Shown in pieces: positions 22,351 to 61,533 of a stretch of 64,000 nucleotides of DNA. The position numbers and the translations under genes were made by a program. Every line of letters starts with the position of its first letter. Within the stretch, counting starts at the first letter, position 1. This DNA comes from an uncultured Alphaproteobacteria bacterium (lineage in GTDB: Bacteria > Pseudomonadota > Alphaproteobacteria > Rhizobiales > Xanthobacteraceae). Location of the stretch: the NCBI GenBank assembly GCA_963831275.1, contig CAWHPN010000004.1, positions 31,265-95,264 on the forward strand, written 5' to 3'. The notes beneath the pieces are model-generated. The model was given only the letters and a program-made list of their open reading frames with translations, did not search any database and was not told the DNA's origin.

Positions 22351-22372
22351 GGGTTGTCTGCAAGATGCCTTC

Positions 22373-22484: not shown

Positions 22485-22510
22485 CAGGCCGGACATGACG
22501 GCGGTTGCAC

Positions 22511-31122: not shown

Positions 31123-31152
31123 TGGGGCCTAAGTTGCTGCAATATATGCAAC

Positions 31153-31779: not shown

Positions 31780-32294
31780 CCGATTTGCGCAGCGGTGATG
31801 CCGGCAGCCTTCAATACGACAACGACTTTTGGCGCTTCTCGCTCGCGGTTTATAGCCACCATGACGTCGCCGAAGAGTGCCTCGCGTTGCAGCAGGCGAC
31901 CGGGGCCGATGTGAATCTCCTGCTTTTTTGTGCATGGACGGGCGCGAGTGCCATTGTTTTAGACGGCAGCGATATCGAAGCAGCTTCAAAACGTGTTTCT
32001 GCATGGCAAGAGCATGTCGTGCGCCCGCTGCGGAGCGCGCGGCAAAACATGAAAGCGCCTGACTATCGCAAATTTGAAAGTTTCAGAACGCGCGTGAAGA
32101 CTATGGAAATAGAATCCGAACAGATCGAACAGGCGATGCTGTTTGCCTTTTCAAAAGGCTTGAGAGAGTCCGATCTGAATCCTCGCGATGTTCTCGCCGG
32201 GAATATCAAAAATTATTTTGAGATGGCGCAGGGCTCCGAGGGCTTGAAACCATCAGCACCTCTATTGATAGAGGCGGCCCTGCGTGTTCGTTGA
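31776..32294 (+). CDS. conserved hypothetical protein (TIGR02444/DUF2390-like as I recall it)
   Basis: FWRFSLAVYSHHDVAEECLALQQATGADVNLLLFCAW pattern. The GTG start overlaps the ubiX stop (GTGA). Confidence 0.55.
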   Translation: MTDLRSGDAGSLQYDNDFWRFSLAVYSHHDVAEECLALQQATGADVNLLLFCAWTGASAIVLDGSDIEAASKRVSAWQEHVVRPLRSARQNMKAPDYRKFESFRTRVKTMEIESEQIEQAMLFAFSKGLRESDLNPRDVLAGNIKNYFEMAQGSEGLKPSAPLLIEAALRVR

Positions 32295-33290: not shown

Positions 33291-33428
33291 GAAACGATAC
33301 CGATGTAGTGGTTCGACTTATTTATGTATTGCATAGGATGCCAACGCGTAAAAGCATAATGGTCGCGACTTATCGCGTAAAACATCCTAGAATTTGCAAC
33401 GCATGCGGGCTGCTTTCGGAGACCGGCA

Positions 33429-35089: not shown

Positions 35090-36436
35090 TCACCCGCGTC
35101 GGATCTTATCAAATTGACCGACCGAAACCTTGCTCACCACGAAACCGGCAGCGGTCACCGGCGAGGTACCATGTGAGCCGCTAAACGTCACACGATAAGC
35201 GCCGGGATCTGCGGGTGCGGAAATTGTCGAACGGATCATTCCGATCTGAGGCCCGCGATACACAACCGGTTGCTCCTGATAGCGGACGAATCTTTTGCCC
35301 TCCGGTGCTGTCACGCGGGTTATCTGAAGCGTGCCGGAAATCTCCTGCGTGCGTAAATCCGGAATTATGAGAACGCTTATCGGTTCGTGCGGAGCAAAAG
35401 TGAAGCTATTCAGAGACAACGTGATGCCGGGCGCTTCAACCAAAGTGAGTTCTGGTGCAAGAGTGCCGCCGGTCAGGACGTCATAAAGAACCTCTCTGAA
35501 CGGGTATGATTTCAGGATGCCGATATGGTCTCCCGGCTTCACGTAGGGATTGAATTGCCCGATCGCAGCGCTTCGAAGCGGAATCGTGCCGTCTCCCAAA
35601 TAATCCGTAGGTACGCCAAAAAAGACCGTTTCGTCGTACTCGACTCTTTCATCCGTGTCCTGATCCGTCCCGGCGATCAGGATGTAGTGTGCCGTAGCCG
35701 GCCGGTTATTGAAGTTCAACTTGGCCTGCACCCGCTTTGCAGCATCAAGATTGTCATGACTGAGATCAAACTCGGTTGCGACAGCCGGAAGATAGAAATC
35801 CTTTACTTCCGGCGGCGTGCTGTGGACGTTCGACAGCGCCTGATCGCCCTGAAAGGGCAGGCATTGATAGCAGGACGGAAAATCTGGATTTGCGCTCAGG
35901 GTTTTCATGTCTGGCGCGGATATACCCAGCCAATCCTTGAGGCCGAGTACATATTCTAAAATGCGCGGGACACCGCAATGCGGGCCGCAAATTCCAATAT
36001 ACTTCGTGATCTTGTCGCTGACGTTTGGGTAGTCGCCGCTTTCCAGAACCAGTCTGGCAACGAGGTTGCCCATCGAGTGGCAAACCAAGGTGACCGAGGT
36101 GCTGCCTTTGTTGACACAGGATGTAATTTTGGATGCCAGTTTATTAGCGGCCGAGAAAATATCCTTGCGCCAGTCATATGGGAAATCGAGGCGGCGAAGC
36201 CCGCGGCTCTTTGCGATGGTATTCAGATCATCCTGAAGGGGTTTGTAGACCTGGTAGCAGGGGAAAACCTTCGGGACGGCGTCGACAATCTTGGCGACTT
36301 TCACACGGGAGTCCTGGAGCTCCGTCAAATGCTGGTAGCCGCCGGCTACCTCACCCAAAGTAGGAGGCCAGATCTCCTGGCCTTTAAATGTCAGCCTTGA
36401 GCCTCCGCCACCTGGTACGAGAATGATTGTTTCCAT
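35090..36436 (-). CDS. LCAT/PDAT-like alpha/beta-hydrolase (phospholipid-dependent acyltransferase or lipase) with C-terminal beta-rich domain
   Basis: FPYDWRKD, nucleophile elbow LVCHSMGNLV, and IGICGPHCGVP. No signal peptide. ATG at 36436 with GGAGAAG upstream, 39 nt after the rSAM gene stop. Confidence 0.75.
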   Translation of the reverse strand: METIILVPGGGGSRLTFKGQEIWPPTLGEVAGGYQHLTELQDSRVKVAKIVDAVPKVFPCYQVYKPLQDDLNTIAKSRGLRRLDFPYDWRKDIFSAANKLASKITSCVNKGSTSVTLVCHSMGNLVARLVLESGDYPNVSDKITKYIGICGPHCGVPRILEYVLGLKDWLGISAPDMKTLSANPDFPSCYQCLPFQGDQALSNVHSTPPEVKDFYLPAVATEFDLSHDNLDAAKRVQAKLNFNNRPATAHYILIAGTDQDTDERVEYDETVFFGVPTDYLGDGTIPLRSAAIGQFNPYVKPGDHIGILKSYPFREVLYDVLTGGTLAPELTLVEAPGITLSLNSFTFAPHEPISVLIIPDLRTQEISGTLQITRVTAPEGKRFVRYQEQPVVYRGPQIGMIRSTISAPADPGAYRVTFSGSHGTSPVTAAGFVVSKVSVGQFDKIRRG

Positions 36437-36475
36437 CACACTTCTCCAGTTCGAGGGCTCGGGCACGCTTGCGGG

Positions 36476-38149
36476 TCATGGTGTCGCCTCTGCGGGGGCG
36501 GGTTCAGCCTTAACCGCTTGTCGCGCCGCGCGTGCCGCGTCCTTGCGATTTAATTGCGGCACGTAGGGCTTTAGCCAATCGGCTGGACCACCTTCGGCAT
36601 CCGTCAACGCGACCGGCTCGAAATAGTGTTTCCAGTCATCCCGGGAGATGTCGGGAGGAAATTCCTCATATTGCGGATCAAGCAATTCGCTGCCTGCCAG
36701 ATAAGTCCGCGCCTGGGCGGGTGAGGTGCTCGACCAGACAAAGCAGTGCAGATTGGCCGCCGCAATGATGTACCAATGGATCGGATCGTATGTGCCCGAG
36801 CGAGCGATCCGTCGAACGGTTTTTAGGAAAACCGAAAGCCGGCTGACGATCGTCCACGGGCGACGAAAAAGCTTCTCCAGAAAAGAGACGATTGCGTCGG
36901 TATTGTCGACAAGGTTTGAATAAGCGACCGTCTCACCATCAAGATCGCGCAGCCGCAGGTTCGGCCGTAATTGTCCCGAGGCGAGATCAGACCAGAATCC
37001 TTCGGTGCCGGCCAGCGGCGCGACGACGCTCAGGTATACCGGCATAGGCAGGGCCGGATGCCGTCCGATCATGCGGATTTGCTCTTCCATCTTCTGGACG
37101 GTCTGCAAACGCGGATCAAAGAGGTAGCCATAGCCAATGCCAATGCCATTGGATTCGGCAAAGGCGATGTCGTCGATGATATTGTGATTGCGTCCCAGAT
37201 TTTGTTTCTTCTTGTATTTCTTCAGCAAGACCTCATCAAACAACTCCAGGCCGAAAAACAGCGTTATGCATTTGGCATCTGCCATGTATTTGATCAGCTC
37301 ACGGTCATGCATGATATTTTGCGTCACGAGCGCGGCCCATCCTCGGATTTTCGGGTGTCGGCGCATCAGTTCGCAAACCTGGAGCATGTACTGCCGGTCG
37401 TCGGAAAAATTATTGTCGAGAAAAATTATGGTCGGATACAGGCGCCGGAAACTCAACCGCGGACTTGTCGCCAGTGCATTGTCGATGGCGGCAGAAAGAT
37501 TCGAAATGTCGTATTTGGCGTGGCCGCCCACCTCATGAGGTATGACGCAAAAACTGCATCGGAAGCTGCATCCGCGCGATGATTCGAGAAGATGGACGCT
37601 TGGACTGATTCCGCTCTTGGCGAGCAGGCTGTAGTCGACAGCGTAAGATGAGATGTGCATCGTGGGCGATCGGTAGATGCGTTGCAGTTCACTGCGTTCA
37701 AAATCGGCGATGACCTGCCGTACGCTATCGACACCGCCGGCACATACGGCGTCGAAAAATTGCGCGGCAAATTCCGGGAACGTCGTGCAAATACTTCCAC
37801 CTGCCACGACTTTTGCGCCGTCGTGGCGAAAAAAATAAGAAAGTTGTCGCATGCGGTCGAAGTCGGGCTGCAGCCCTGTGAGGAATACGATGTCGTATTT
37901 TTCTCTGTCTGCGGTGTTGAACGGGCCGTGCCAATCCTCGTGATAAAGGCGCACGTCGAAACGCTGCGGGTCGATAAGAGAGGCAACGTGAAGCCCGCTT
38001 ATCGGCTGCATGACATAGCTTGAACGACGTTTCACCCGGCCCGGTCGAAGGTGAGTGCATATGACGAGGGCGCGTCTTTTTTTCGGGCTGTCACGATGGG
38101 GGCTGTCGATCGGCGCCCGGCGCCGCATGGCTGATGCCAAGGAATGCAT
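36476..38149 (-). CDS. B12-binding-domain radical SAM enzyme (class B rSAM)
   Basis: N-terminal B12-binding-like segment (YDIVFLTGLQPDF...GAKVVAGGSICT) and the cluster motif SSRGCSFRCSFCVIP (CxxxCxxC). The start could also be the ATG at 38128. Confidence 0.85.
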   Translation of the reverse strand: MHSLASAMRRRAPIDSPHRDSPKKRRALVICTHLRPGRVKRRSSYVMQPISGLHVASLIDPQRFDVRLYHEDWHGPFNTADREKYDIVFLTGLQPDFDRMRQLSYFFRHDGAKVVAGGSICTTFPEFAAQFFDAVCAGGVDSVRQVIADFERSELQRIYRSPTMHISSYAVDYSLLAKSGISPSVHLLESSRGCSFRCSFCVIPHEVGGHAKYDISNLSAAIDNALATSPRLSFRRLYPTIIFLDNNFSDDRQYMLQVCELMRRHPKIRGWAALVTQNIMHDRELIKYMADAKCITLFFGLELFDEVLLKKYKKKQNLGRNHNIIDDIAFAESNGIGIGYGYLFDPRLQTVQKMEEQIRMIGRHPALPMPVYLSVVAPLAGTEGFWSDLASGQLRPNLRLRDLDGETVAYSNLVDNTDAIVSFLEKLFRRPWTIVSRLSVFLKTVRRIARSGTYDPIHWYIIAAANLHCFVWSSTSPAQARTYLAGSELLDPQYEEFPPDISRDDWKHYFEPVALTDAEGGPADWLKPYVPQLNRKDAARAARQAVKAEPAPAEATP

Positions 38150-38348
38150 CGTCGCGCCCTCTGTCAGAATCTATTAAAAACACCAATCAAATGCGTGCTG
38201 TTGGCCCTGCGACATTGGGCTCAGCTGGCGGCGAAGCCCAGCCTAGCTTACAATCCGCCTCGGTCCCAGCTACTGAATTCGCCGGCCGGTATAACGGTGG
38301 GTGGGTACGGATGAAGAGGTTGAAAATGCTCATCCGGAAAGCGTGAAG

Positions 38349-41300
38349 ATGACAAATGGATCAACTGGGGCGAGTCGGTCCAATGTCCCGCAGCGTCGTT
38401 ATCTAACGATCCTTTTTTGCGACCTTGTGGGCTACACCGAGCTGTCGGAACAGCTGGATCCCGAGGAATTGAGGGATTTGCAGCTGCAGTATCAACGTCT
38501 CGCGCTCACGGTGATGGAGCGTTACGGCGGATTTGTCGCGCAGTTTAGCGGCGACGGCGTTCTCGTTTATTTCGGGTACCCGACCGCGCACGAAAATGAT
38601 GCCGAGCGGGCCGTACGTGCCGCTCTGGAACTGGGCGACAGGCTCGAAGAGCTCAACAACGAGCTTCGCGATCAGCAACTGCCCGCTCTCTCGACCCGTA
38701 TAGGAATTCACACGGGCCTCATTGTTATTGGCTCGGAGCTGGCAAGCGGTGGCGCACAAGATCACAGTATCGTCGGGGAAGCCGCCAATCTCGCCGCCCG
38801 CCTGCAGGCCGAGGCGCCGACCAATTCGGTCGTTGTCAGTGGCGAAACGTTCGAGATGATTTCCGGATTATTTGACTATAAATCGCTTGGGCCGAAACGG
38901 TTCAAAGGCATTACACGCATTATTCCCATCTATAAAATAACCAAGCCTCGCGTAGGGATAGGGCGGGCCCACAATCGGGGGCGACGGGGAGCGCCGCTTT
39001 TTGTTGGGCGAGCACAATCGATTGAGCGGACCGTCGCGTTCTGGGGGCAGGCCAAAGAGAAGTCCCGATGTGAAACCGTTCTCATCAACGGGGAAGCAGG
39101 CGTCGGCAAAACGAGGCTGGCGCTCGAAATTATCAAACATTCAGAACTCGGCGACGTGAACGTCCTGCAAATTCATTGCCATGACATATTTGCGAGCACA
39201 CCGCTTTACTCAATCGGAATGTTCCTGTGGACTGAAGCAGGACTGACCGTCGATGATGACGAGCCGGTCCGCAAACAAAAACTTGCGAGCTTTCTCGATA
39301 ATTTTGGTCTCAAGACCACTGAAAATCTGGATATCGTCAGTAGTCTTCTCGGCACATCGCTGACGTCGACGACGGAGGCCAGCGCGCCGACGCCGTTTCT
39401 TTTCAAGCGAAAACAGTTTGCGCTACTGGTCTCGCTATTTGAGCAGATGGCGCGGAAACAGCCCACGCTGATATGGGTCGATGACGTTCACTGGATTGAT
39501 CCGTCGTCGGCGGAATTGCTGCAGGAAATTGTCCGCCGGCTCGAAAAGTTGCCCGTACTGATGCTTCTGACTGGGCGGTCCTTTCCAAAAAGCCCGAACT
39601 TGCCGCATACCGACAATGTCATCGAACTCAGTCAGCTCGATGCTGACGAGTGCTTTGAGCTCGCCCGTGCAATCCCGCGCGCCGGAATCCTGTCAGACGA
39701 CGACCTGACGCGTGCCGTCGAGGCTGCCGACGGTATTCCGCTGTTCGTGGAACACCTCGTTTTGTCTCTCGTCGACCAGAAAGAACAGGCGACAGGCGCA
39801 GCGCGCAAGCGAGGCGATCTGCCGCTCACCTTGGCCGCGATGATATCGGAACGGCTCGACCGGGTCCCGGACGGACGGCGCGTCGTGCAAGCGGCGGCCT
39901 GCATTGGAGCGCCGTTTACGGCCGATTTTCTGGCGGCGCTCCTGCAGGATAGCGATGCCAAGATTATTGCCCCTCTTGAGGCCCTCATCGACGCTGAAAT
40001 TCTACGTTCAAATCACGACGATCGCGAAATTCGGTTCGAGTTTCGGCACGCGTTGCTGCTGCGGGCCGCTTATGAATCGATGGTGCAATCGGAACGGCGG
40101 GCGACCCACGCCAGCATCGTCAAGGAATTGCAGCGGGAAGGGGCCGCCGGGCCCTTTGTTCCCGAACTCATTGCGCATCATTTGACGGCCTCAGGTCAGT
40201 TCCAGGAAGCGATCCGGACCTGGCTGGATGCGGGTACGAGCGCTGCGCGACGGTCGGCGCACATTGAAGCGATCGACGATCTACGGCGCGGTCTGAGCAT
40301 GCTCAATGAAATTTCATCCCCGCAACTGCGTACCCAGCTGGAGATCAACCTTCAGGCCGCATTGATCGGTTCTGTGATTGCCTCTCAGGGGCCGACCTCG
40401 TCAGCCTTGTCAGAATGCTGCCAAAGGGGCCTTGCGCTCTGCAAGGAAGCGGAAGGGACGCCGCTGGTGTTTGCGTTCCTCTTCGGACAGTTCACCTACG
40501 CAATGTGCCGCGGCCGCATTGAAGACGCTGCGCCGCTGGCGCGCCTCTTTCATTCGCTGGCGAGCAGCAAGTCCTATGATTCAGGACGCGTTATCGGACA
40601 TCGTCTTTTGGGAATGACACATATCAACGCGGGTGATGCATCCAAAGCGAAAGAGCAACTTGAGCAATCGCTCGAACTGTACTCGGCCGAGCGGGACGCC
40701 GCGTCCACACTTATGTTCGGCCAAAACACGCAAGTTCACAGCCGCTCATTGCTCAGCCTCTCGCTTTTTTGCCTTGGCCACGTCGATGAGGCCATTCAAG
40801 TTGGGCTTGATGCGCTTGAGGCCGCCGACGCTCTTCATCACCCTCATTCGACCGCGCTCGCACAAGGTTACGTGGGCGGTTGGCTCTTCGGCCTGTGTGG
40901 CGCCAAAGACGAATTGATGCGGGAGGCAAAGCAGTTGATAGTTTTGTCGGAGCAACATCGGCTCGGGCCATTTCGCCTCTTCGGATCAGCTTTTTTGGGA
41001 TGGGGCCTGTGCCAAGGCGGCGATCTTGAAAACGGCGTTGCCATGCTAAAGAAGGCGATCGACAAGCTGGAATTTATCGAGTTCCTTCTTTCGATATCCG
41101 GGCATCTCGCAATCCTGGCCGATGCCCAACGCCAGCAAGGCAATCTTGAAATTGCAAAGAAATCTTGCGCGCGTGCCCTGGCGTTGATCGCCGATGGCGC
41201 CGATCGTTGGATTGAGCCCGAAGTTCATCGGGTCAATGCCTTGATCGAGAGCGATATGGGACTCTCAGATCCGGGAAAAATTGAAGCGAAATTTCGTGAC

Positions 41301-41504
41301 TCGATCGAATGCGCAAAAAAAATGGGATTTCCGGTCTTCGAGCTTCGTGGGTTGGTCAGCCTGAAGAACTTTCTGGGGCCGAACGGGCAGGACGTCGAGG
41401 TTGAATCTCGCATTAAACAATTATCGTACCTGCAGAATCTTGATCAGCGTGTCGATGCCGCCATCAAGACGCGCGGCTACAAACTTTGCGCAACAGTGCA
41501 GTAA
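38349..41504 (+). CDS. class III adenylate/guanylate cyclase - STAND/AAA ATPase - TPR multidomain protein
   Basis: Cyclase: YLTILFCDLVGYTELSE, FSGDGVLVYFGYP, RIGIHTGLIVIG. P-loop INGEAGVGKTRLA, Walker B TLIWVDDVHWID. Long helical/TPR-like C-terminus with no HTH. Confidence 0.85.
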   Translation: MTNGSTGASRSNVPQRRYLTILFCDLVGYTELSEQLDPEELRDLQLQYQRLALTVMERYGGFVAQFSGDGVLVYFGYPTAHENDAERAVRAALELGDRLEELNNELRDQQLPALSTRIGIHTGLIVIGSELASGGAQDHSIVGEAANLAARLQAEAPTNSVVVSGETFEMISGLFDYKSLGPKRFKGITRIIPIYKITKPRVGIGRAHNRGRRGAPLFVGRAQSIERTVAFWGQAKEKSRCETVLINGEAGVGKTRLALEIIKHSELGDVNVLQIHCHDIFASTPLYSIGMFLWTEAGLTVDDDEPVRKQKLASFLDNFGLKTTENLDIVSSLLGTSLTSTTEASAPTPFLFKRKQFALLVSLFEQMARKQPTLIWVDDVHWIDPSSAELLQEIVRRLEKLPVLMLLTGRSFPKSPNLPHTDNVIELSQLDADECFELARAIPRAGILSDDDLTRAVEAADGIPLFVEHLVLSLVDQKEQATGAARKRGDLPLTLAAMISERLDRVPDGRRVVQAAACIGAPFTADFLAALLQDSDAKIIAPLEALIDAEILRSNHDDREIRFEFRHALLLRAAYESMVQSERRATHASIVKELQREGAAGPFVPELIAHHLTASGQFQEAIRTWLDAGTSAARRSAHIEAIDDLRRGLSMLNEISSPQLRTQLEINLQAALIGSVIASQGPTSSALSECCQRGLALCKEAEGTPLVFAFLFGQFTYAMCRGRIEDAAPLARLFHSLASSKSYDSGRVIGHRLLGMTHINAGDASKAKEQLEQSLELYSAERDAASTLMFGQNTQVHSRSLLSLSLFCLGHVDEAIQVGLDALEAADALHHPHSTALAQGYVGGWLFGLCGAKDELMREAKQLIVLSEQHRLGPFRLFGSAFLGWGLCQGGDLENGVAMLKKAIDKLEFIEFLLSISGHLAILADAQRQQGNLEIAKKSCARALALIADGADRWIEPEVHRVNALIESDMGLSDPGKIEAKFRDSIECAKKMGFPVFELRGLVSLKNFLGPNGQDVEVESRIKQLSYLQNLDQRVDAAIKTRGYKLCATVQ

Positions 41505-41525: not shown

Positions 41526-42641
41526 ATGCTTGGTCGATTTGCCGGCCACTTCGCAACCTCGCCGGTTTCGTTTGAAATAATTCTTCCCGACAAGAGCATC
41601 CAACGTTTTGGCCCCGCCACCCCGGGCTTCCGAGTTAATCTCAAAAACCCTCGAGGGTTACGCGCCATTGAAAGTATCGACGAAGGTCAGATCGGCGACG
41701 CCTACGTTGCCGGCGACATCGATATCGACGGCGACATGCTGCAGCCTTTTGAGCTCCGGGGGGCCATGAAGGATTTCCACCCGCTGGTTGTTGCATGGCG
41801 TTTCATCCAGCCTTTTCTGTTTGGGCAGGTGCATACCAACAGGCAGGCCATCAGCGCTCACTACGACATCGATCCGGAGTTCTTCCTCAGCTTCCTTGAT
41901 CCCGAAACGCCTTGTTACACCCAGGGCGTTTATGAGGATCCAAATGAATCGCTCGGCGTGGCCACGCGTCGCAAGCTCAAATATTGCTTTGAAAAGCTTG
42001 AGCTGAAACCGGGCGATCATCTGCTGGAAATTGGGCCTGGATGGGGGGCGTGGTTCGAATATGCGTCTAGCCGGGGTGTTCACTGCACCGGGATCAGCAA
42101 TTCGCAGGCATCAGTCGACTATCTCAACGGTCGGGCGAAACAGCTCGGTTACGACTGGGAGCTTGTAAAGGGAGATTTTCTGCAATATCGCCCCGATCGG
42201 AAATACGACGCGATTGTCATCATGGGGGTCATTGAGCATCTGCCCGATTACGGCCAGGTGTTGAACAAATTCACAACGTTGCTAAAGCCCGGTCGGCGCA
42301 TCTTTCTGGATGCCAGTGCCTGCACGAAAAAATATGAACTCTCATCGTTCATGGTCAAATACATTTACGGCGGCAATCATTCGTTTCTTGTCCTTCACGA
42401 TCTTCTCGACAAGATGGCTATGACGCCTTTGCGTGTTCATGAAATGTTTGACGACCGCTTCAGCTATTTTCTCACGTTCCGGCAATGGGCGACCAATTTC
42501 GATCAGCATCGCGAAGCCGTCGTCGAAAAATTCGGCGAATTCAATTATCGTCGATTCCGGTTGTACCTTTGGGGAGCCGCCTATGAATTCCTCAGCCGAA
42601 GCCTCGACTGTTACCGGATGATTATTGCGTATCCGAAATAG
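41526..42641 (+). CDS. cyclopropane-fatty-acyl-phospholipid-synthase-like SAM methyltransferase
   Basis: ISAHYDIDPEFFLSFLDPETPCYTQGVYE, SAM motif LLEIGPGWGAW. GGAG lies 8 nt upstream; the gene starts 21 nt after the cyclase-STAND gene stop. Confidence 0.85.
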   Translation: MLGRFAGHFATSPVSFEIILPDKSIQRFGPATPGFRVNLKNPRGLRAIESIDEGQIGDAYVAGDIDIDGDMLQPFELRGAMKDFHPLVVAWRFIQPFLFGQVHTNRQAISAHYDIDPEFFLSFLDPETPCYTQGVYEDPNESLGVATRRKLKYCFEKLELKPGDHLLEIGPGWGAWFEYASSRGVHCTGISNSQASVDYLNGRAKQLGYDWELVKGDFLQYRPDRKYDAIVIMGVIEHLPDYGQVLNKFTTLLKPGRRIFLDASACTKKYELSSFMVKYIYGGNHSFLVLHDLLDKMAMTPLRVHEMFDDRFSYFLTFRQWATNFDQHREAVVEKFGEFNYRRFRLYLWGAAYEFLSRSLDCYRMIIAYPK

Positions 42642-42658: not shown

Positions 42659-43912
42659 CTAATCCTTGCTTACGCGACGCACGTTCCGCACAGCCGTGAC
42701 GTGAGCCGCTGCTCGCGTCGAGGGAAATACGTGGCCTTTCATCTTTCGTTTCGGTGGCGGCGCGGCCAATTCAACGACAAAAGCTGGCGTCTGGCTGTCG
42801 CAATAGCGCGCCACGGCTTTGGCAAAATCATCCAGGACCGCGCTCAATTCATCCCGGGGAGGGGGCGGCCGAAGATCTCCCAGAACCCAAACCGTGTGGC
42901 ATTGCTTGAGAACGCCGGAAACGGACGCCAGATCTCTTTGCAGCATCGCCGTGAACCGCGCGATGTTTGCTTCATGACTTTCCTCGGCGACGGAAACCAC
43001 AGGCCCTACACCATCAATGATGACAACCTGGGATTGGCTCCAGGGCCAATAGGAAATAGTCGCGGGTCCGTGATCATCGGGAAAGTCACGGTCCGTCGCG
43101 GACGTGGCAAATTCGAGCAGGGAATCGAGACCGAGGTATCGAACCTTGTGCTGTTTGAAGGCGAATTCAGTTCCGATCCCGGCGGCCATGGACGTGCGGC
43201 CCGATCCGATCGGACCGCCGACGATCACCTGACTCGGTGGTGCGGTCGGGGGCGCGCCGTCGTCAATGAGCTTTTGCAGCGCTTTGGCATCTTCTTCGCT
43301 GATATTTGGCGCCGCATCAGCAAGCCGAAACAGATAAGGAATTGATGCTTTTTGCCAGATTATTTTCTGCCGCAGCCATCGTGGCGCGAGTACGATGGCG
43401 ACGACAACCACTCCCGTCGATATCAGCGCCGACGGGATCACAGGTTGATGAAAAGCAAATCCCATCACGCCGCCCAATGCGATGTAGATTGCCGCGATAA
43501 TTGCATTATCGCGCAGGAGTTTTGCATCGAGTGGAAAACGACCGGTCGCCTGTTTTACGGAACTGTTGTAGGCGCTCCACTCCCACAGTGCTGCGCCGAC
43601 GACGACCAGCAGCAAGCCGGGCCAGATTCCCATCCGGTAGGTCAAAGGCAGTGCCAAGCCCAGCCACTTCGCGGCCAGGTATTTTATGCCGACGAGAACG
43701 CCGCCGCTTACCGTGGTGCCAATGAAATTAATTATGATGCCAAGACAAATATGGCCGAACTGGTCGGCCAACCAGGTGTAGGAATAAGTCGCGGCTGTCT
43801 GGACTTCCTTGCCGTAAGCATCGGCCCAAAACTGATGCAAGAGATCCTTGGTAGTCAGTTTTGGGGCGCTCGGCCCAAATAGGCTCGCGCGTGCATGTTC
43901 TCTGGAGTTCAT
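42659..43912 (-). CDS. hypothetical membrane protein with C-terminal degenerate P-loop NTPase-like domain
   Basis: Four or five predicted TM helices (residues ~70-200), then VIVGGPIGSGRTSMAAG (Walker A-like with Arg in the Lys position) and VVIIDGVG (Walker B-like). I chose the ATG at 43912, preceded by GGGGGGAAGG. Confidence 0.55.
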   Translation of the reverse strand: MNSREHARASLFGPSAPKLTTKDLLHQFWADAYGKEVQTAATYSYTWLADQFGHICLGIIINFIGTTVSGGVLVGIKYLAAKWLGLALPLTYRMGIWPGLLLVVVGAALWEWSAYNSSVKQATGRFPLDAKLLRDNAIIAAIYIALGGVMGFAFHQPVIPSALISTGVVVVAIVLAPRWLRQKIIWQKASIPYLFRLADAAPNISEEDAKALQKLIDDGAPPTAPPSQVIVGGPIGSGRTSMAAGIGTEFAFKQHKVRYLGLDSLLEFATSATDRDFPDDHGPATISYWPWSQSQVVIIDGVGPVVSVAEESHEANIARFTAMLQRDLASVSGVLKQCHTVWVLGDLRPPPPRDELSAVLDDFAKAVARYCDSQTPAFVVELAAPPPKRKMKGHVFPSTRAAAHVTAVRNVRRVSKD

Positions 43913-44179
43913 GGCCTTCCCCCCGAGCATCCCTGGGCGGGAGCTTACTGCCGTTGTGGGGTCCAATGAAACAGGTAACTCGCTCCTCAATCAGATGAGC
44001 GATGCGCAATTTACGGGCTTCCGTCTCCGCGATAACCTAGCCACCGATCTAGCGGCCAATGTACGCATCGCGTTGGATTCCGAAGACTGAAGCGGGATGG
44101 CCATCGCTGTGCGTTCGACGTTCTCTGATCACAGGCCGGCGTTGCAACGGTCGCATCAGGCATCAGGCGGGGGAAGGGC

Positions 44180-46895: not shown

Positions 46896-47118
46896 TGTTA
46901 TTCTCCCTCACTTACACCGCTATCACGCGGTTGCTCGAACGACGGTGAAGTAGCTCACATTCGCCGCTCGGTTTTGCCGCTGGTTGTGCTCAGCGCGTGC
47001 GAGGGTCGGAGCCTGGTCGGGCTAATAGGTTTGTTTTTGATGCTTCCGGGCAATATGCTGCCGTACCGCGGTAAGGAGTATTCGATGTTTTATTCAAAAT
47101 TTGTTTGGTGAACGCTGC

Positions 47119-47841
47119 ATGGCGATGGGGGCTGGCGATCGTTCTCGAACGAAGCCGTTTGATAAGCATCAACTTCTGCGCGCGCACCCATTTTTCAGGG
47201 ATTTGGGTGACGCGATCATTGAGCGTCTCGCCCCGCGGGTCATTACGACAAAACTGAAAAAGGGCGCCGTCATATTCCGGAAAGGGGATATCGGCTCGAA
47301 GCTTTATGCCGTAGGCACCGGGGCGGTGCGAATCAGCACTCCGTCCGAAGAGGGAAAGGATGCGATTTTCAACCTGGTGGTTCCCGGAGAGCTGTTCGGA
47401 GAAATTGCCTTCCTCGATGGCGGACAGCGAACGGCCGATGCAGTCGCAATCGATGACTGCGAGCTGATGGTAATAGAACGGCGCGATTTCATCCCTTTAA
47501 TTCAAGACAATCCCGAAGTCGCTATCGGGTTGATCAAAATACTTTGCGGGCGCATACGAAAAACGAGCGAGCAGGTCGAAGACATCGTCTTTCTCGATCT
47601 TCCAACCCGTCTCGCCAAGGTGCTGTTGCATTTACACCGGCCTTCCGGCACGGCCGCTCCCTCGAGCAAGATCAATGTCACGCAGAGAGAGATCAGTCAG
47701 ATGATCGGCGTTTCGCGTGAAAGCGCGAACAAACAATTGCAGGCATGGCAACGTAAGAAGTGGCTGAAACTTGAACGCGGCGGGATAATGATTATTGCGC
47801 CCCAAGCCCTCCGCGACCTCGTCTCAAAAAGCCCGGATTGA
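47119..47841 (+). CDS. Crp/Fnr-family transcriptional regulator
   Basis: CNB domain (GELFGEIAFLDGGQRTADAVA) plus a C-terminal HTH (TQREISQMIGVSRESANKQL). No obvious SD at the ATG at 47119. Confidence 0.85.
   Translation: MAMGAGDRSRTKPFDKHQLLRAHPFFRDLGDAIIERLAPRVITTKLKKGAVIFRKGDIGSKLYAVGTGAVRISTPSEEGKDAIFNLVVPGELFGEIAFLDGGQRTADAVAIDDCELMVIERRDFIPLIQDNPEVAIGLIKILCGRIRKTSEQVEDIVFLDLPTRLAKVLLHLHRPSGTAAPSSKINVTQREISQMIGVSRESANKQLQAWQRKKWLKLERGGIMIIAPQALRDLVSKSPD
47159..47172. promoter_or_regulatory. perfect FNR/FixK-type half-site palindrome TTGAT-N4-ATCAA
   Basis: TTGATAAGCATCAA at 47159-47172, inside codons 14-18 of the annotated Crp/Fnr ORF. Confidence 0.5.
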
Positions 47842-56597: not shown

Positions 56598-57472
56598 CCT
56601 ATAGCGGCGAACTACGATCCGGCAAGGGCGCACACGACGAGAATTTTCCTGTGGCCTCTCGATTGATCAAGCGGCGGCATCGTCCTGCCATTCTGGCGTT
56701 TTACGAATTCGTGCGGGTTGCGGACGACATTGCCGATCATTCGCAATTAACAAGCGACGAAAAAATTGCCCGGCTGGACCGCCTGGAAGCCAGTCTGCTG
56801 GGCAAAGGTGGTGACGAACCGGAGGGATTGCAGTTGCGTGCAGTTCTCAACAGCCGGGGCTTGTCGGCGCGCCATGCGCAAGACCTGCTGAATGCATTCC
56901 GGCAGGACGCCACAAAACTCCGCTACGTGAATTGGGAGGATCTGATCGACTATTGTTCGCGCTCGGCGATGCCCGTCGGCCGTTTTGTGCTCGACGTGCA
57001 TGGTGAGAGCAGGGATACCTGGCCCGCATCGGATGCGCTTTGCGCGGCGCTACAAATCATCAATCATTTGCAGGATTGCGCAAAGGACTACAGGGCACTC
57101 AATCGGGTTTACATTCCACTCGATGCGATGGAGGCAAACAACATTGGCGTGGACGCACTCAGCGCGTCCCAGGCAAGCCCCGGGCTGCGAAATTGCCTGC
57201 GAGGGTTGGTCGACCGTACGTCGGCCCTGCTGGGTGAAAGCCAGGGGCTCGAACCGAAGGTCGGTGACACACGGCTTGCGCTTGAGATTTCGGTCATCCA
57301 GTCGCTTGCACGCCAGCTGCTGACAATTCTCTCGGTCCGTGATCCCTTGTCGGAGCGCGTGCACCTGAGCAAAGCCGAGGCGCTGGCTGCGGCTGTAAAT
57401 GGAAGTGGACGCGCTATACTGCGTCGGCTCCTGCGGACCGTGGCGCCGGCGCACCGATATCAAACCCCATGA
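56594..57472 (+). CDS. hpnC: hydroxysqualene synthase HpnC (squalene/phytoene synthase family)
   Basis: HDENFPVASRLI....RPAILAFYEFVRVADDIADH. ATGA overlap with hpnB. Confidence 0.85.
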   Translation: MTYSGELRSGKGAHDENFPVASRLIKRRHRPAILAFYEFVRVADDIADHSQLTSDEKIARLDRLEASLLGKGGDEPEGLQLRAVLNSRGLSARHAQDLLNAFRQDATKLRYVNWEDLIDYCSRSAMPVGRFVLDVHGESRDTWPASDALCAALQIINHLQDCAKDYRALNRVYIPLDAMEANNIGVDALSASQASPGLRNCLRGLVDRTSALLGESQGLEPKVGDTRLALEISVIQSLARQLLTILSVRDPLSERVHLSKAEALAAAVNGSGRAILRRLLRTVAPAHRYQTP

Positions 57473-58317
57473 ACATCCAAATTTCACAACCGGCAAGTTC
57501 CTCTCCGGCTGCAAATCGCGCCGGAGGCAGCTCCTTCTACCTCGCGATGCGAATTCTCAGCCGCGAGAAAAGAGAGGCGATGTTCGAGATCTATTCGTTT
57601 TGTCGTGCCGTTGACGATATTGCCGACGAGGAGGGGCCACGACCGCAACGGCTCGCGCTCCTGGCGGAATGGCGCAAAAATATCGAAGCGCTCTATTCCG
57701 GCGGCAGTGTGCCCGCTGGCCTTGAGAAACTCGCGAATTCCATTGCCCGGTTTGGGCTGCGCAAGGATGATTTTCTTGCAGTTATCGACGGCGTCGAAAT
57801 GGACGCGCGCGCTGACATTCAGGGTCCAAGTCTGAAGGAGCTCGATCTTTATTGCGACAGGGTTGCCTGTGCCGTCGGACGATTGTCGGTCCGGGTCTTC
57901 GGCATGAACGACGATGGCGGTAGGGCGCTCGCGCACCACCTTGGTCGCGCTCTGCAGCTCACCAATATCTTGCGTGATATAGACGAAGATGCCGGCATCG
58001 GCCGTCTTTATCTGCCGCAGGAGGCACTGGAACGCGCCGGCATCGGCAGCACCGATCCAAAGACGGTTGCTTCAAGTCCTCAAATAGGCACGGTTTGCGC
58101 TTTCATCGTCGAACGCGCGCGCGGACACTTCGCCAAAGCGAAAGAGATCATGGCTGCCTCTCCACGCCCGGTCGTGCGCGCGCCGAAAGTCATGGGCGCG
58201 GTCTATCGTCAAATGCTCGAAGACATGGTGGCGCGGGGCTGGGCACCGCCACGGAACAGGGTTCGCGTCAACAAATCGTATTTATTGTGGATTGCGTTGC
58301 GGCATGCATTCCTCTGA
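57469..58317 (+). CDS. hpnD: presqualene diphosphate synthase HpnD
   Basis: SSFYLAMRILSREKREAMFEIYSFCRAVDDIADE. ATGA overlap with hpnC. Confidence 0.85.
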   Translation: MNIQISQPASSSPAANRAGGSSFYLAMRILSREKREAMFEIYSFCRAVDDIADEEGPRPQRLALLAEWRKNIEALYSGGSVPAGLEKLANSIARFGLRKDDFLAVIDGVEMDARADIQGPSLKELDLYCDRVACAVGRLSVRVFGMNDDGGRALAHHLGRALQLTNILRDIDEDAGIGRLYLPQEALERAGIGSTDPKTVASSPQIGTVCAFIVERARGHFAKAKEIMAASPRPVVRAPKVMGAVYRQMLEDMVARGWAPPRNRVRVNKSYLLWIALRHAFL

Positions 58318-59575
58318 CGCGGGTACAATCCACATTATCGGCGCGGGTTTGGCGGGGCTTGCCGCTGCCGAACGTTTGTCGCGATCGCGTCGATCCGTGG
58401 CAATCCATGAAGGGACTGCTCAAGCCGGGGGCCGATGCCGTTCGTACTACGATCAGTCCACCGGGATGTTGATCGATAACGGCACCCACCTTTTGTTGTC
58501 TGGAAATCACGCCGCGCTTTCTTTCACCGAAGCGATCGGGTCACGAGCGGGTTTGCATGGGCCCGAAAACGCGCAATTTCCTTTCATGGATATTAAGAGC
58601 GGCGAACAGTGGACCTTGCGATTTGGTGACAGCCGCTTTCCCTGGTGGGTATTCGACAAGGATCGACGCGTGCCGCAAACGACCGTTGTCGACTACTTGC
58701 TGCTTGCCCGTCTCGCGTGGTCATCGGTCGATAAGCCGATTGGGGAGGTCATGAATTGCGGTGGCCCCATCTATGAGCGCTTTCTCGGGCCTTTGTTGCT
58801 TGCAGCACTGAACATCGCCCCGCGCGAGGGTTCGGCGAAACTTGCCGGCGCACTTGTCCGCGAAACGCTGGCGCTGGGCGGTCAAGCCTGCCGCCCGCTG
58901 TTGGCGTACGAGGGGCTGGGAAGCGTGTTTGTCGAGCCTGCAATCGCCCATTTGCAGCGACAAGGGATCGCAATCGCGTTTGAGGACGAGCTGGTTGCGC
59001 TGAGCTTTGCAAAGGGGCGCGTGTCGGAGCTTAAATTTGCCAAGCAGGTGGTCGATCTGGGTGCAAATGACGCCGTTATTCTTGCGGTCCCGCCGTATGT
59101 TGCGACAAGCCTTGTGCCTGACCTCGTGGCGCCCACATCATTTCGAGGCATCGTGAACGCGCATTTCCGTGTGGATCCACCGGCTCATTTGCCGCCGATG
59201 CTTGGTGTCATCAACGGGGTTTGCGAATGGGTATTTCCGTTGTCTGGCCGGATTTCGGCCACGATCAGCGACGCCGGCCGTTTTTTTGACCTGCCGCGAG
59301 CGGAATTGGCCCAGTTGATATGGAATGACATTGCAAAGATTGCAGGCCTGCCAGCAAGTCTTCCACCTTGGCAGATCGTTCGCGAGCGTCGTGCTACTTT
59401 TACCGCGACACCCGAACAGAATGCCCGGCGTCCTGAAGCGAAAACGTCGTGGGACAACCTGTTTCTGGCCGGCGACTGGACGCAGACGGGCCTTCCCGCG
59501 ACCATCGAAAGCGCGGTTCGCTCGGGTTACCGGGCAGCCGATCTTGTCAATCATCGCTTGCGGGTTGCCGCATGA
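58304..59575 (+). CDS. hpnE: hydroxysqualene dehydroxylase HpnE (FAD amine-oxidase fold)
   Basis: IHIIGAGLAGLAAAERL dinucleotide-binding motif. Overlaps hpnD by 14 nt. Confidence 0.85.
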   Translation: MHSSDAGTIHIIGAGLAGLAAAERLSRSRRSVAIHEGTAQAGGRCRSYYDQSTGMLIDNGTHLLLSGNHAALSFTEAIGSRAGLHGPENAQFPFMDIKSGEQWTLRFGDSRFPWWVFDKDRRVPQTTVVDYLLLARLAWSSVDKPIGEVMNCGGPIYERFLGPLLLAALNIAPREGSAKLAGALVRETLALGGQACRPLLAYEGLGSVFVEPAIAHLQRQGIAIAFEDELVALSFAKGRVSELKFAKQVVDLGANDAVILAVPPYVATSLVPDLVAPTSFRGIVNAHFRVDPPAHLPPMLGVINGVCEWVFPLSGRISATISDAGRFFDLPRAELAQLIWNDIAKIAGLPASLPPWQIVRERRATFTATPEQNARRPEAKTSWDNLFLAGDWTQTGLPATIESAVRSGYRAADLVNHRLRVAA

Positions 59576-61533
59576 CGGCCATGGATACAGGCCAGCGTTT
59601 GTCACCGCGAGCGGTCAATATCGAGCCAGCAATCGCGAGCGCGGGGAGAGCCCTGTCTGAATGCCAGGTCCATGACGGGCATTGGGTTTTCGAATTGGAA
59701 GCTGATGCGACAATCCCTGCCGAATATGTGCTGCTGAGGCACTACCGCGACGAGCCGATCGATGCGGTGCTCGAGCGGAAAATCGCCGTCTATCTTCGCC
59801 GCATTCAGGGCCAGCACGGCGGGTGGCCGCTTTACTATCAGGGCGCCTTCGACATGAGCGCGAGCGTGAAGGCATATTTCGCGCTCAAGATGATCGGCGA
59901 TCGTCCGAATGAGGCCCACATGCAGAGGGCCCGCGAGGCGATCCTTGCCCGGGGAGGTGCGGTCCATTGCAACGTATTCACCCGTGCGCTGCTCTCGCTG
60001 TACGGAATTTTGGAGTGGGGAAGCGTGCCGGAAATGCCGGTCGAAATCCTGCTGCTTCCGCGCTGGTTTCCGTTTCATCTTTCAAAAGTATCGTACTGGG
60101 CCCGTACGGTGCTCGTGCCGCTGCTGGTTCTGCAAGCTTTGCGCCCACGCGCAAAGAACCGGCTTGGCGTTAAAATTGACGAATTGTTTCTGGAATCGCC
60201 CTTGTCGATCGGACGGGCAGCGAAAGCACCGCATCAACGTTGGGTCTGGTTTGCGTTCTTTCGCGCCATTGATTTCGTGCTCCGGCCGGCGGTCAAGCTT
60301 TTTCCGAAAAGCGTGCGTCAGCGTGCCATCGACCGGGCTGTGGCATTTGTGACCGAACGGCTGAACGGCGACGACGGTCTGGGAGCAATTTTTCCCGCCA
60401 TGGCGAATGCAACAATGATGTTTGACGTGCTCGGCGCAAAGGCAAAGGCCGCTATTGCACGCCAGTCGATCGAGAAATTGCTCATCGTCAAAGATGGCGA
60501 GGCCTACTGCCAGCCCTGCGTCTCGCCGGTATGGGACACCGGGCTTGCTTGCCAGGCTTTGTTGGAAGTCGGCGACGAAAAGGCCCGCGCCAGTGCGATC
60601 CGCGGGCTCGACTGGCTGCTGCCCTGCCAGGTTCTCGACATTGCCGGGGATTGGGTCACCCGGCGGCCGCAACTGCGGCCCGGTGGCTGGGCCTTTCAAT
60701 ATGCAAACCCGCACTATCCAGACCTCGACGATACCGCTGTTGTCGTGATGGCGATGGACCGCGCCCGCAGGGAGGGCGCGGGGGGCCAATATGACAAAGC
60801 CATCGATCGGGCCGTCGAATGGGTGATCGGTATGCAAAGCCGCAATGGCGGATGGGCAGCATTCGACGTGGATAATATCTACGACTATCTCAACAATATT
60901 CCATTCGCCGACCACGGAGCGCTGATCGACCCGCCGACCGAGGATGTTACGGCTCGCTGCGTTTCCATGTTGGCGCAACTCAAAGAGACGTCGGATGGTC
61001 GAGGCCATGCTTTGTCGCGGGGCGTTGAGTATCTTCTCGCCACGCAAACCAGGGATGGAAGCTGGTATGGGCGTTGGGGACTGAATTATATCTACGGGAC
61101 CTGGTCCACCCTTTGCGCGCTCAACGCCTGCGGCATGGACCACGGTCGCGTAGAAATCCGCAGGGCCGTGAATTGGCTCATCGCCATTCAAAACCCCGAC
61201 GGCGGTTGGGGCGAAGATGGCTCAAGCTACAGGCTGGACTATCGCGGCCACGAACCGGCCACCAGCACATCATCGCAGACGGCCTGGGCACTTCTTGGGC
61301 TAATGGCCGCCGGCGAAGTCGATCACCCGGCGGTTGAGCGGGGTGTGCAATATCTTTCGCAACAGCAGGCTAAAGATGGTTTCTGGGCCGAAGACCGGTT
61401 TACCGCGACCGGCTTTCCCCGCGTTTTCTATCTCCGGTATCACGGCTATCGTAAATTCTTCCCGCTGTGGGCGCTCGCCCGCTATCGCAACTTGCGAGCG
61501 GGTAATGACGCGCGGGTCGCTTTCGGAATGTGA
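59572..61533 (+). CDS. shc: squalene-hopene cyclase
   Basis: DxDDTA motif (YPDLDDTAVVVMAM) and repeated QW-type motifs (QNPDGGWGE, QSRNGGWAAF, TRDGSWYGRWG). ATGA overlap with hpnE. Confidence 0.95.
   Translation: MTAMDTGQRLSPRAVNIEPAIASAGRALSECQVHDGHWVFELEADATIPAEYVLLRHYRDEPIDAVLERKIAVYLRRIQGQHGGWPLYYQGAFDMSASVKAYFALKMIGDRPNEAHMQRAREAILARGGAVHCNVFTRALLSLYGILEWGSVPEMPVEILLLPRWFPFHLSKVSYWARTVLVPLLVLQALRPRAKNRLGVKIDELFLESPLSIGRAAKAPHQRWVWFAFFRAIDFVLRPAVKLFPKSVRQRAIDRAVAFVTERLNGDDGLGAIFPAMANATMMFDVLGAKAKAAIARQSIEKLLIVKDGEAYCQPCVSPVWDTGLACQALLEVGDEKARASAIRGLDWLLPCQVLDIAGDWVTRRPQLRPGGWAFQYANPHYPDLDDTAVVVMAMDRARREGAGGQYDKAIDRAVEWVIGMQSRNGGWAAFDVDNIYDYLNNIPFADHGALIDPPTEDVTARCVSMLAQLKETSDGRGHALSRGVEYLLATQTRDGSWYGRWGLNYIYGTWSTLCALNACGMDHGRVEIRRAVNWLIAIQNPDGGWGEDGSSYRLDYRGHEPATSTSSQTAWALLGLMAAGEVDHPAVERGVQYLSQQQAKDGFWAEDRFTATGFPRVFYLRYHGYRKFFPLWALARYRNLRAGNDARVAFGM

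Follow-up and report, generated by a model that had tools for sequence, protein, structure and literature searches.

The window, a 64-kb stretch of a 691-kb metagenome contig (ENA ERZ25039564 contig_1658) from an uncultured alphaproteobacterium of the Xanthobacteraceae whose nearest relatives are metagenome-assembled genomes (MAGs) of Pseudolabrys, carries a gene for a radical S-adenosylmethionine (SAM) enzyme (rSAM) followed on the same strand by a gene for a putative serine hydrolase or transacylase of the LCAT/LPLA2 fold. These two genes are the enzymatic half of a three-part module, the remaining part of which is a divergently oriented gene for a STAND protein that combines a class III nucleotide cyclase, a P-loop NTPase and TPR repeats (Table 1). 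A first-pass annotation of this DNA had reported two co-oriented open reading frames (ORFs), a CSFRCSFC motif and a 39-nt gap between the genes, all of which are present. It had viewed the locus as a two-gene pair and, while the pair is real, its most constant partner, the cyclase-STAND gene, had been overlooked.

Gene organization of the locus

The hydrolase gene starts at an ATG at position 36436, 39 nt past the rSAM stop codon, with the sequence GGAGA located 6–7 nt upstream. An alternative GTG start at 36466 would give a protein of 458 aa; homologues begin with M-x-T-I-I-L-V-P-G. A terminator scan identified no terminator-like site between the two genes, and the pair is probably co-transcribed, as had been suggested earlier. 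The gene order of the window, the 'Pseudolabrys' form, runs from the cyclic nucleoside monophosphate (cNMP)-binding protein through the 'TM443' membrane protein, the CMAS-like methyltransferase and the STAND protein to the divergent rSAM and the LCAT-type hydrolase. Homologous loci elsewhere are labelled L001 and so on.

Table 1. Features of the module and of the hopanoid cluster, with positions in the window
Feature	Position	Strand	Remarks
Putative cytoplasmic LCAT/LPLA2-fold serine hydrolase or transacylase, 448 aa	35090..36436	-	Fills the variable 'hydrolase slot' of the module
Spacer from rSAM stop to hydrolase ATG, 39 nt	36437..36475	-	GGAGA ribosome-binding site; no terminator
Radical SAM enzyme (rSAM), 557 aa	36476..38149	-	Core of the module and its best-conserved gene
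Divergent intergenic (promoter) region between rSAM and cyclase-STAND genes, 151 nt	38150..38300	.	
STAND protein: class III nucleotide cyclase, AAA_16 P-loop NTPase and TPR	38301..41504	+	Pfam Guanylate_cyc, AAA_16, TPR
CMAS-family (cyclopropane-fatty-acyl-phospholipid-synthase-like) SAM methyltransferase	41526..42641	+	Accessory; Pfam CMAS 134.8 bits
'TM443' membrane protein, about four transmembrane helices and a C-terminal P-loop-like domain	42659..43990	-	Accessory
cNMP-binding-domain protein, 223 aa	44180..44851	+	Pfam cNMP_binding 44.6 bits
CRP/FNR-family regulator	47101..47841	+	Pfam cNMP_binding and HTH_Crp_2
GT2	at 55452		Hopanoid cluster
SQS_PSY	57469..58317		Hopanoid cluster
Amine oxidase	58292..59575		Hopanoid cluster
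SHC	59449..61533		Hopanoid cluster
HpnH-like rSAM with DUF3463	62769..63920		Hopanoid cluster

Conservation of the three-part module

When each species was represented by a single genome, a scan found 74 rSAM loci, most of them in Alphaproteobacteria (Pseudolabrys, Bosea, Sphingomonadales and Stellaceae) and the others in Burkholderiales, including Variovorax gracilis, in Acidobacteriota, Rokubacteria and Dormibacterota, and in one Streptomyces. Cultured carriers include V. gracilis J22R24, in which the locus (L031) has olsC and olsB adjacent, and four strains of Bosea, among them B. caraganae RCAM 04680, Bosea sp. LC85 and Bosea sp. BK604, as well as Sandaracinobacteroides hominis and a Streptomyces. 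For the analysis of neighbouring genes, ORFs were called and clustered, the hidden Markov models of the clusters were searched on six-frame translations, and genes within 6 kb of the rSAM were counted in the 59 loci whose flanks both reached 5 kb or more. Most constant among these genes is that of the cyclase-STAND protein, with a protein of approximately 1050 aa containing Guanylate_cyc, AAA_16 and TPR domains encoded at 55 of the 59 loci, and an LCAT-superfamily hydrolase is encoded at 40. The remaining recurrent neighbours are OlsB-like (16 loci), CMAS-like methyltransferase (15), OlsC-like (14), TM443 (14), OlsA-like (8), P450 (6), FadL (4) and desaturase-like (4) genes.

In 53 loci the STAND and rSAM genes point away from each other, and in 50 of these their anchors are 188–355 nt apart. 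The LCAT-superfamily hydrolase gene mostly lies directly downstream of the rSAM or convergent to it. Sequence divergence is correlated between the rSAM and STAND proteins (r = 0.59) and between the STAND protein and the hydrolase (r = 0.67), and synteny is stable over at least ten Pseudolabrys-like genomes. The rSAM, the hydrolase and the cyclase-STAND protein are, with near certainty, a conserved three-part functional module.

That the rSAM and LCAT-like genes are unrelated and became neighbours by chance is barely credible. Such a reading could draw on the LCAT-type subfamily of the window, which is usually found without an rSAM; the pairing is conserved at the level of the superfamily, where the hydrolase is usually directly downstream. 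Against it, an LCAT-superfamily gene accompanies the rSAM in 40 of the 59 loci, 4-nt overlaps between the two genes are frequent, a distant paralogue of the rSAM shows the triad again (L009), and the neighbourhood itself is found in more than 70 loci, statistics that contradict adjacency by chance.

Among the accessory genes, the CMAS-like gene occurs near the rSAM in several different gene orders and in the window follows the STAND gene by 21 nt in the same orientation; the NCBIfam Cfa models score far below cutoff on its product. The TM443 gene is called publicly as a 417-aa protein (42659–43912). Its product carries the conserved motifs GxxGSGRT and hhhhD together with hydrophobic segments, is 67% identical to the L003 copy, and gave no Pfam match and nothing meaningful in the PDB.

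The radical SAM protein

Membership of the radical SAM superfamily is clear from the GCSFRCSFC motif (CX3CX2C, C194/C198/C201) and from the Pfam Radical_SAM match (PF04055, 33.5 bits against a cutoff of 29.5). In the AlphaFold2 model (pLDDT 81.9), an N-terminal Rossmann domain resembling B12-binding domains precedes the radical SAM barrel and a conserved helical C-terminal domain of approximately 150 aa. Whole-chain fold matches in the PDB are AprD4 (E 8e-15), OxsB, MgmA, TsrM, CysS, MiaB and TokK, and AprD4 is also the sole PDB sequence match of the rSAM profile (E 5e-4). All NCBIfam models score below 50 bits on the protein, against cutoffs of 250–750, with PhpK at 47.7 against 600.

The first-pass annotation had called this protein a B12-radical SAM enzyme, of which the radical SAM part and a predicted Rossmann domain stand, while the cobalamin part is not established. 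The Pfam B12-binding match is sub-threshold (PF02310, 20.8 bits against 32.1), the nearest structure is AprD4, which to our knowledge binds no cobalamin, and an Rfam search of the window returned no cobalamin riboswitch; for these reasons B12 dependence is not regarded as a finding. The overall fold of the model matches both cobalamin binders (OxsB, TsrM, CysS and TokK) and AprD4. More generally, Rfam gave no match to a riboswitch or other RNA, either at gathering thresholds over the full window or at E ≤ 1 between 34900 and 44300.

Invariant cysteines in the rSAM homologues are C121, C136, C194, C198, C201 and C294, and C31 and H33 are nearly so. Of these, C31, H33, C121 and C136, which lie in the Rossmann domain (span 31–136), are candidate ligands of a second metal centre, which could take the place of cobalamin or accompany it. 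Fold matches also include the methylthiotransferases MiaB and MtaB and, with the four residues, leave a second metal site as an alternative to cobalamin.

The family is large and tight. It comprises at least 751 homologue clusters at 90% identity, mostly from soil metagenomes, of which the top 120 are at least 63% identical, and the median pairwise identity within the orthologue group is 59–61%. Clustering at 50% identity leaves two full-length representatives, and the score falls from approximately 580 to approximately 217 bits at the next clade.

The hydrolase and its exchangeable slot

The LCAT-family hallmarks proposed earlier, FPYDWRKD, CHSMGN and GICGPHCG, are all present in the hydrolase, and the Pfam LCAT model matches it above cutoff over residues 69–212 only (PF02450, 45.1 bits against 21), placing it in the family. 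An AlphaFold2 model built with 68 homologues (pLDDT 94.2) matches LPLA2 (PDB 4x92, E 9.5e-13, TM 0.64) and then human LCAT (6mvd, E 1.4e-10). The beta-rich C-terminal domain foreseen by the first-pass annotation appears in the model as an Ig/FnIII-like beta-sandwich (residues ~337–434), similar to the FnIII-like domains at the C-terminal end of GH3 enzymes. The triad S121, D282 and H304 is invariant across the 68 homologues. The chain opens directly with strand beta-1 (METIILVPGGGGS) and contains no N-terminal hydrophobic segment, so the absence of a signal peptide noted earlier is borne out and the enzyme is expected to be cytoplasmic, unlike the secreted or luminal LCAT family. Judged from the model, the protein is a cytoplasmic member of the LCAT/LPLA2 superfamily with competent catalytic residues. 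A PDB sequence search gave no match for this hydrolase. Known LCAT, LPLA2 and PDAT enzymes move an ester-linked acyl chain of a phospholipid onto a lipid hydroxyl or water.

The gene found downstream of the rSAM at most loci encodes a 514-aa protein, here c2, with only weak Pfam Abhydrolase and PGAP1 matches; NCBIfam gave no match for either c2-type or LCAT-type hydrolases. After a first clustering it appeared that the LCAT gene was simply not conserved beside the rSAM, a conclusion overturned when profile–profile comparison with hhalign identified the 514-aa neighbour as a distant LCAT-superfamily member (99.4% probability, E 6e-22, 310 columns). The two groups have in common the motifs PGGxGS, DWR(R/K), HSxG, PxxG, GDGT(I/V)P and (D/E)H, the c2 family keeps the LCAT-type triad, and some c2 members match PF02450 directly. 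Of the 40 hydrolases near the rSAM, 38 are of the c2 type and two of the LCAT type seen in the window, which is the rarer replacement in a slot normally held by the distant c2 subfamily.

This replacement can be followed within the genus-level Pseudolabrys-like clade, in which the rSAM proteins are 83–91% identical, by comparing the interval between the rSAM and UbiD genes. An LCAT-type gene occupies it in the window and in L086 (hydrolase 91% identical), a c2-type gene in L013 and L014 and a short convergent c2-type gene in L113, and it is empty in L010, L012, L015, L056, L057 and L064. Elsewhere, the LCAT-type gene occurs together with the rSAM in L008, L033, L035 and L037. A second, older version of the triad exists in L009 (8001–13372), where the gene after the LCAT-type hydrolase encodes a distant paralogue of the rSAM (24% identity, hhalign 96.8%) and the next, convergent one an AAA_16/TPR protein that lacks the cyclase. 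Together, L009 and the variation of the slot indicate that the pairing of rSAM, LCAT-superfamily hydrolase and STAND protein is old and recurrent and that the particular hydrolase is exchangeable.

In L112 (7001–12390), a c2-type hydrolase without an rSAM lies 2 kb from a phospholipase of cNMP_binding, NTE_Ploop and patatin domains, another juxtaposition of cyclic nucleotide and lipase functions. On the far side of the window's slot, an aromatic-acid decarboxylase-type cluster (28762–35072) is convergent with the LCAT-like gene and is not related to the module. It contains a molybdopterin hydroxylase subunit, a UbiX-like flavoprotein, DUF2390, a TctC receptor and a UbiD-family decarboxylase, and is syntenic in L014. 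Further away, a type I secretion set (15973–27467) includes a 2125-aa Big_9/cadherin-like repeat protein, an HlyD-family adaptor (22719–23762), a C39-peptidase ABC exporter (23749–26058) and a TolC-like outer-membrane protein (25941–27467).

Lipid genes around the module

The genes that accompany the module are overwhelmingly lipid genes and no paper describing the pair was found, which makes the 'undescribed lipid-tailoring pair' of the first-pass annotation a fair headline. Using NCBIfam, neighbours were identified as OlsB (NF052555, 360.9 bits against a cutoff of 320), OlsA (NF052553, 327.8 against 300), an OlsC-like hydroxylase (408 against 450), an OlsF-N/GlsA-like acyltransferase and FadL; a 475-aa neighbour is a P450. 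All 31 clustered ols-type members match ornithine-lipid N-acyltransferase, OlsA or OlsC models at E ≤ 1e-40. In 60 well-flanked loci, an ols-type gene lies within 6 kb of the rSAM in 22, and 43 carry at least one lipid gene (ols-type, CMAS-like, FadL, desaturase-like or P450).

The ols genes are sometimes part of the same gene array. In L070, olsA and the STAND gene are 3 nt apart, 78 nt separate STAND from the rSAM gene, and the rSAM is followed by the hydrolase (−4 nt), olsC (−4 nt) and olsB (−32 nt). L077, L022, L036 and L023 are arranged similarly, and genes overlap in L070, L077 and L022. Loci linked to ols genes come from Alpha- and Betaproteobacteria, Acidobacteriota, Rokubacteria and Dormibacterota, and thus from at least four phyla. 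As olsB is normally a single gene among several thousand in a genome, its presence at 16 of the 59 loci is far above chance, even allowing for relatedness, and control loci without the rSAM gave no ols match. In other genomes, then, the orthologous module is linked to the genes of ornithine lipid synthesis.

Four betaproteobacterial MAG loci (L062, L066, L067 and L069) are laid out differently. Genes for two Amidohydro_2 proteins of 640–740 aa are followed there by those for the rSAM, STAND, CMAS-like and OlsF-N/GlsA-like proteins, olsB lies on the other strand, and an LCAT-superfamily hydrolase is missing. In L001, two genes with weak FA_desaturase_2 similarity lie between the STAND and hydrolase genes.

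The first-pass annotation had looked to a different lipid. It speculated on the methylation of a hopanoid, or of another triterpenoid, by a B12-dependent rSAM and on its esterification by the LCAT-like enzyme to give hopanoid esters or a hopanoid–lipid A linkage. The hopanoid cluster it placed approximately 17 kb away is real and begins 17.3 kb from the pair. LCAT-family enzymes acylate the 3-hydroxyl of sterols, homologues of the LCAT-type hydrolase occur in the photosynthetic Bradyrhizobium strains ORS278 and ORS375, members of a genus that makes hopanoid–lipid A, and automatic JGI annotations label a few members of the rSAM family 'hopanoid C-2 methylase'. The comparison with HpnP, HpnR and HpnJ that had been suggested nevertheless points away from these enzymes, as the rSAM reaches 37.8 bits with the HpnJ model, where the cutoff is 577.6, and 29.1 with HpnR, where it is 650, while HpnP gives no match at E ≤ 0.01. 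When the window proteins were used as queries, no homologue of the hopanoid-type SHC, HpnD or HpnH was found within 10 kb of the other loci, and the LCAT-type gene of ORS278 stands alone, with neither an rSAM nor hpn genes beside it. Within the window, unrelated genes for a major facilitator superfamily (MFS) transporter, a GGDEF-EAL protein and an FAD oxidoreductase separate the two clusters. The recurrent context of the rSAM is instead one of ols, CMAS, FadL and P450 genes, in which ornithine lipid is the recurring theme. A hopanoid linkage was rejected on the low scores against the hopanoid rSAM equivalogs and the lack of genomic linkage to shc and hpn genes, and a triterpenoid substrate is considered highly improbable. 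Between the module and the hopanoid cluster lies the gene for a large dCache-PAS-GGDEF-EAL signalling protein (49439–52567, plus strand).

The cyclase-STAND protein

The longest ORF predicts a STAND protein of 1067 aa, and the public gene call, starting at 38349, one of 1051 aa. Across 57 homologues the metal-binding residues D41 and D85, the transition-state residues N163 and R167, residue R133 and the Walker A motif GxxGxGK[ST] are conserved and, with cyclase, Walker A and TPR in a single chain, the protein is a STAND NTPase bearing a class III cyclase. The positions that specify the base are non-canonical and variable, with Q, S, R or N at one and G or S at the other. TIGR03903 ('TOMM system kinase/cyclase fusion protein') matches residues 20–1019 with 385.6 bits, below its cutoff of 705.75. 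The cyclase-AAA-TPR architecture and the Gln in place of the canonical Lys recall the mycobacterial protein Rv0386. From their sequences, all three proteins of the module are predicted to have competent catalytic residues. The STAND-cyclase of L001 (662–4237) has an additional N-terminal DNA-binding domain of the OmpR type (Trans_reg_C).

Two cNMP-binding proteins are encoded 2.7–6 kb from the cyclase-STAND gene of the window, one with a cNMP_binding domain only and one of the CRP/FNR family. The first is a possible receiver of the cyclase signal, and its gene is syntenic only within the Pseudolabrys-like group. The second is possibly a downstream regulator of the module, and in Bosea loci as well as L020, L034, L040, L048 and L052 the module has CRP-like homologues (25–43% identity) no more than 10 kb away; the link is weak because such regulators are common. 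Across 38 non-redundant intergenic regions between the STAND and rSAM genes, no palindrome or 8-mer that could act as a shared operator occurred above shuffled controls, and the Pho box (CTGTCAT-N4-CTGTCAT) was not enriched over shuffles.

A STAND protein combined with a lipase is a common architecture in defence, and the module could be a conflict system of the anti-phage or abortive-infection kind, in which the STAND protein would sense the invader, the cyclase signal, the lipase attack the membrane and the rSAM make or modify a nucleotide-type molecule. Consistent with this, the cyclase domain matches the PycC models of Pycsar in PADLOC (E 4e-17), the effector slot is swapped among hydrolase subfamilies, and several loci lie in mobile surroundings. 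L008 adjoins YqaJ and ERF, which are genes of phage recombination, and an ISL3 transposase, L111 is surrounded by reverse transcriptases and transposases, and in L004 (11170–11712) and L005 (8383–8904) a gene with the PycTM domain, of the Pycsar effector type, lies approximately 3 kb from the module beside an IS200-type transposase. The enzymes themselves argue otherwise, as PADLOC gave no match for the hydrolase and a single 13-bit fragment for the rSAM, which at a median of approximately 60% identity across phyla is unusually conserved for a defence gene. Stable synteny in the Pseudolabrys-like genomes, the embedding in ols operons with 4-nt gene overlaps and accessory genes that encode biosynthetic lipid enzymes, and not nucleases, toxins or restriction-modification functions, point the same way, and a conflict system is judged improbable. 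The known defence systems of PADLOC were rejected, as the cyclase domain alone was matched and not a full system. In L008 (1–17350), hydrolases of the c2 and the LCAT type occur together, an ORF of 100 aa with a sterile alpha motif precedes the STAND gene, and a second ORF resembling a B12-rSAM, of 300 aa, is present.

The TIGR03903 match, though below cutoff, would also suit a natural-product cluster for a ribosomally made peptide with post-translational modifications (RiPP), where the rSAM would modify a peptide or secondary metabolite under a STAND pathway regulator of that type, and the rSAM and P450 show weak matches to the RiPP enzymes ApyD and ApyO, respectively. Every score on a RiPP model is far below its cutoff, however, and the spacers of 39 and 151 nt in the window operon leave no room for a precursor gene. 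No small ORF of at least 70 aa is common to the loci, and a cyclodehydratase, protease and exporter are not consistently present. A RiPP origin is very unlikely.

Proposed function of the module

Given this setting, the module probably acts on a lipid, and its assignment to ornithine lipid specifically is put forward tentatively, at somewhat short of even confidence. The reading preferred here, for and against which the case is about evenly balanced, is that the module would remodel or tailor acyl lipids of the membrane, with acyloxyacyl aminolipids (ornithine lipids) the most probable kind and hopanoids not among them, as suggested by protein sequence and gene neighbourhood. The cytoplasmic LCAT/LPLA2-like enzyme would form an acyl-serine intermediate at the inner face of the membrane and remove or move an ester-linked acyl chain, either by transfer from a phospholipid to the 3-hydroxyl of a lyso-aminolipid or by deacylation of the piggy-back chain. 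The rSAM would perform a C–H functionalization on the acyl chain or head group of the lipid, which may be a methylation if cobalamin is used and otherwise a radical rearrangement or insertion. The STAND protein would bind a ligand through its TPR repeats, oligomerize through its NTPase domain and make a cyclic nucleotide, a signal that nearby cNMP-binding or CRP-type proteins may read.

Several observations weigh against acyl-lipid tailoring. No ols gene lies within 6 kb of the rSAM in 38 of the 60 loci and none is present anywhere in the 64-kb window, so that for the window itself the link to ornithine lipid is made only through the homology of the module. Six close relatives lack a hydrolase within 10 kb of the rSAM. 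The LCAT-type subfamily of the window occurs mostly without the rSAM, as in L006 and Bradyrhizobium ORS278, and 23 of 25 metagenome contigs with an LCAT-type gene, found by alignment of close homologues and many of them short, carry no rSAM, with a single one of the 25 carrying it. The associated P450 resembles those of secondary metabolism and not fatty-acid P450s. The combination of a STAND protein and a lipase would also fit a conflict system, and some loci adjoin mobile or phage genes. Finally, the loci are phylogenetically non-independent and many derive from MAGs.

The same genes could also constitute a signal-and-receptor circuit, in which the rSAM and hydrolase, joined in some genomes by an OlsB-like N-acyltransferase, P450 or CMAS, make a small lipid-derived signal, for example an N-acyl amino acid or fatty acid in modified form, with the STAND-cyclase as its receptor in the manner of LuxI/LuxR and a cNMP/CRP output. 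The tight divergent pairing of sensor gene and enzyme operon, the correlated divergence of their products, and the CRP-type genes nearby in several lineages all accord with a circuit of this kind, as do the FadL-type outer-membrane channels for hydrophobic molecules, the P450s and the DNA-binding domain of the L001 STAND protein. Full sets of OlsB, OlsA and OlsC indicate a bulk membrane lipid instead, an export gene is not consistently present, and sensing of a product cannot be told from sensing of stress. This circuit is held to be unlikely, if slightly less so than a conflict system.

A fuller version of the acyl-lipid reading, offered as speculation and rather doubtful, is a lipid-homeostasis circuit of soil bacteria in which the rSAM adds a sixth modification to ornithine lipid or a related aminolipid, the LCAT-like transacylase shuttles acyl chains between phospholipid and aminolipid, and the STAND protein reports the state of the lipid as a cyclic nucleotide. 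A 2026 review lists five modifications of ornithine lipid and states that it is unclear whether further ones exist (PMC12971839). Such a homeostasis circuit, if real, would bring radical SAM chemistry and an LCAT-type enzyme into aminolipid metabolism for the first time, and would give the abundant cyclase-AAA-TPR proteins their first ligand context. In soil and host-associated bacteria, ornithine lipids and related aminolipids are major membrane lipids that contain no phosphorus.

All three proteins fall in known superfamilies. The literature searched contained no paper on the triad or its ols link, nor on a radical SAM enzyme with ornithine lipid or with a cyclase, STAND protein or lipase. 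A tight and conserved rSAM family that lies inside ols operons in at least four phyla, and for which no describing paper was found, is a concrete candidate for new lipid chemistry, and one that comes with a built-in sensor of the cyclase-AAA-TPR class. As several cultured strains carry the module, the question is directly testable.

Comparison with known systems

The hydrolase has in common with LCAT, LPLA2 (PLA2G15) and PDAT the alpha/beta-hydrolase core, the Ser-Asp-His triad, the H-S-M-G nucleophile elbow and the DWR motif. It differs from them in lacking a signal peptide, in its low identity to LPLA2 (17%), in the additional C-terminal beta-sandwich and in being a bacterial protein paired with a radical SAM enzyme. 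The rSAM has the domain order of the class B-like enzymes with B12-binding domains, namely Rossmann domain, CX3CX2C barrel and C-terminal domain, but its sequence kinship to them is minimal and the C-terminal domain of approximately 150 aa is particular to its family.

The STAND protein resembles Rv0386 and the TIGR03903 proteins in the succession of class III cyclase, STAND P-loop NTPase and TPR, and in the window it resembles Rv0386 also in having Gln and not the canonical Lys at the purine-specifying position. In contrast to these proteins, it has neither a LuxR helix-turn-helix nor a kinase domain and is fixed beside an rSAM–hydrolase operon. The resemblance to Pycsar, seen in the PycC match and in the PycTM-domain genes of L004 and L005, is at the level of the class III cyclase domain only, as PycC proteins have no AAA_16-TPR part. 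The module, for its part, has no fused or operon-fixed effector activated by cNMP, and its rSAM and hydrolase are without PADLOC counterparts.

The described ornithine lipid pathways and the five known modifications involve no radical SAM enzyme, LCAT-type enzyme or cyclase-STAND protein (PMC12971839, PMC12493201), and the window differs further in carrying no ols gene. The known modifications are, however, made by accessory enzymes encoded near ols genes, and the module is likewise repeatedly embedded in ols operons. The alpha/beta-hydrolase OlsI, the O-acyltransferase of lyso-ornithine lipid in Singulisphaera (PMC12493201), offers a precedent for the O-acylation of such a lipid by an enzyme of this fold.

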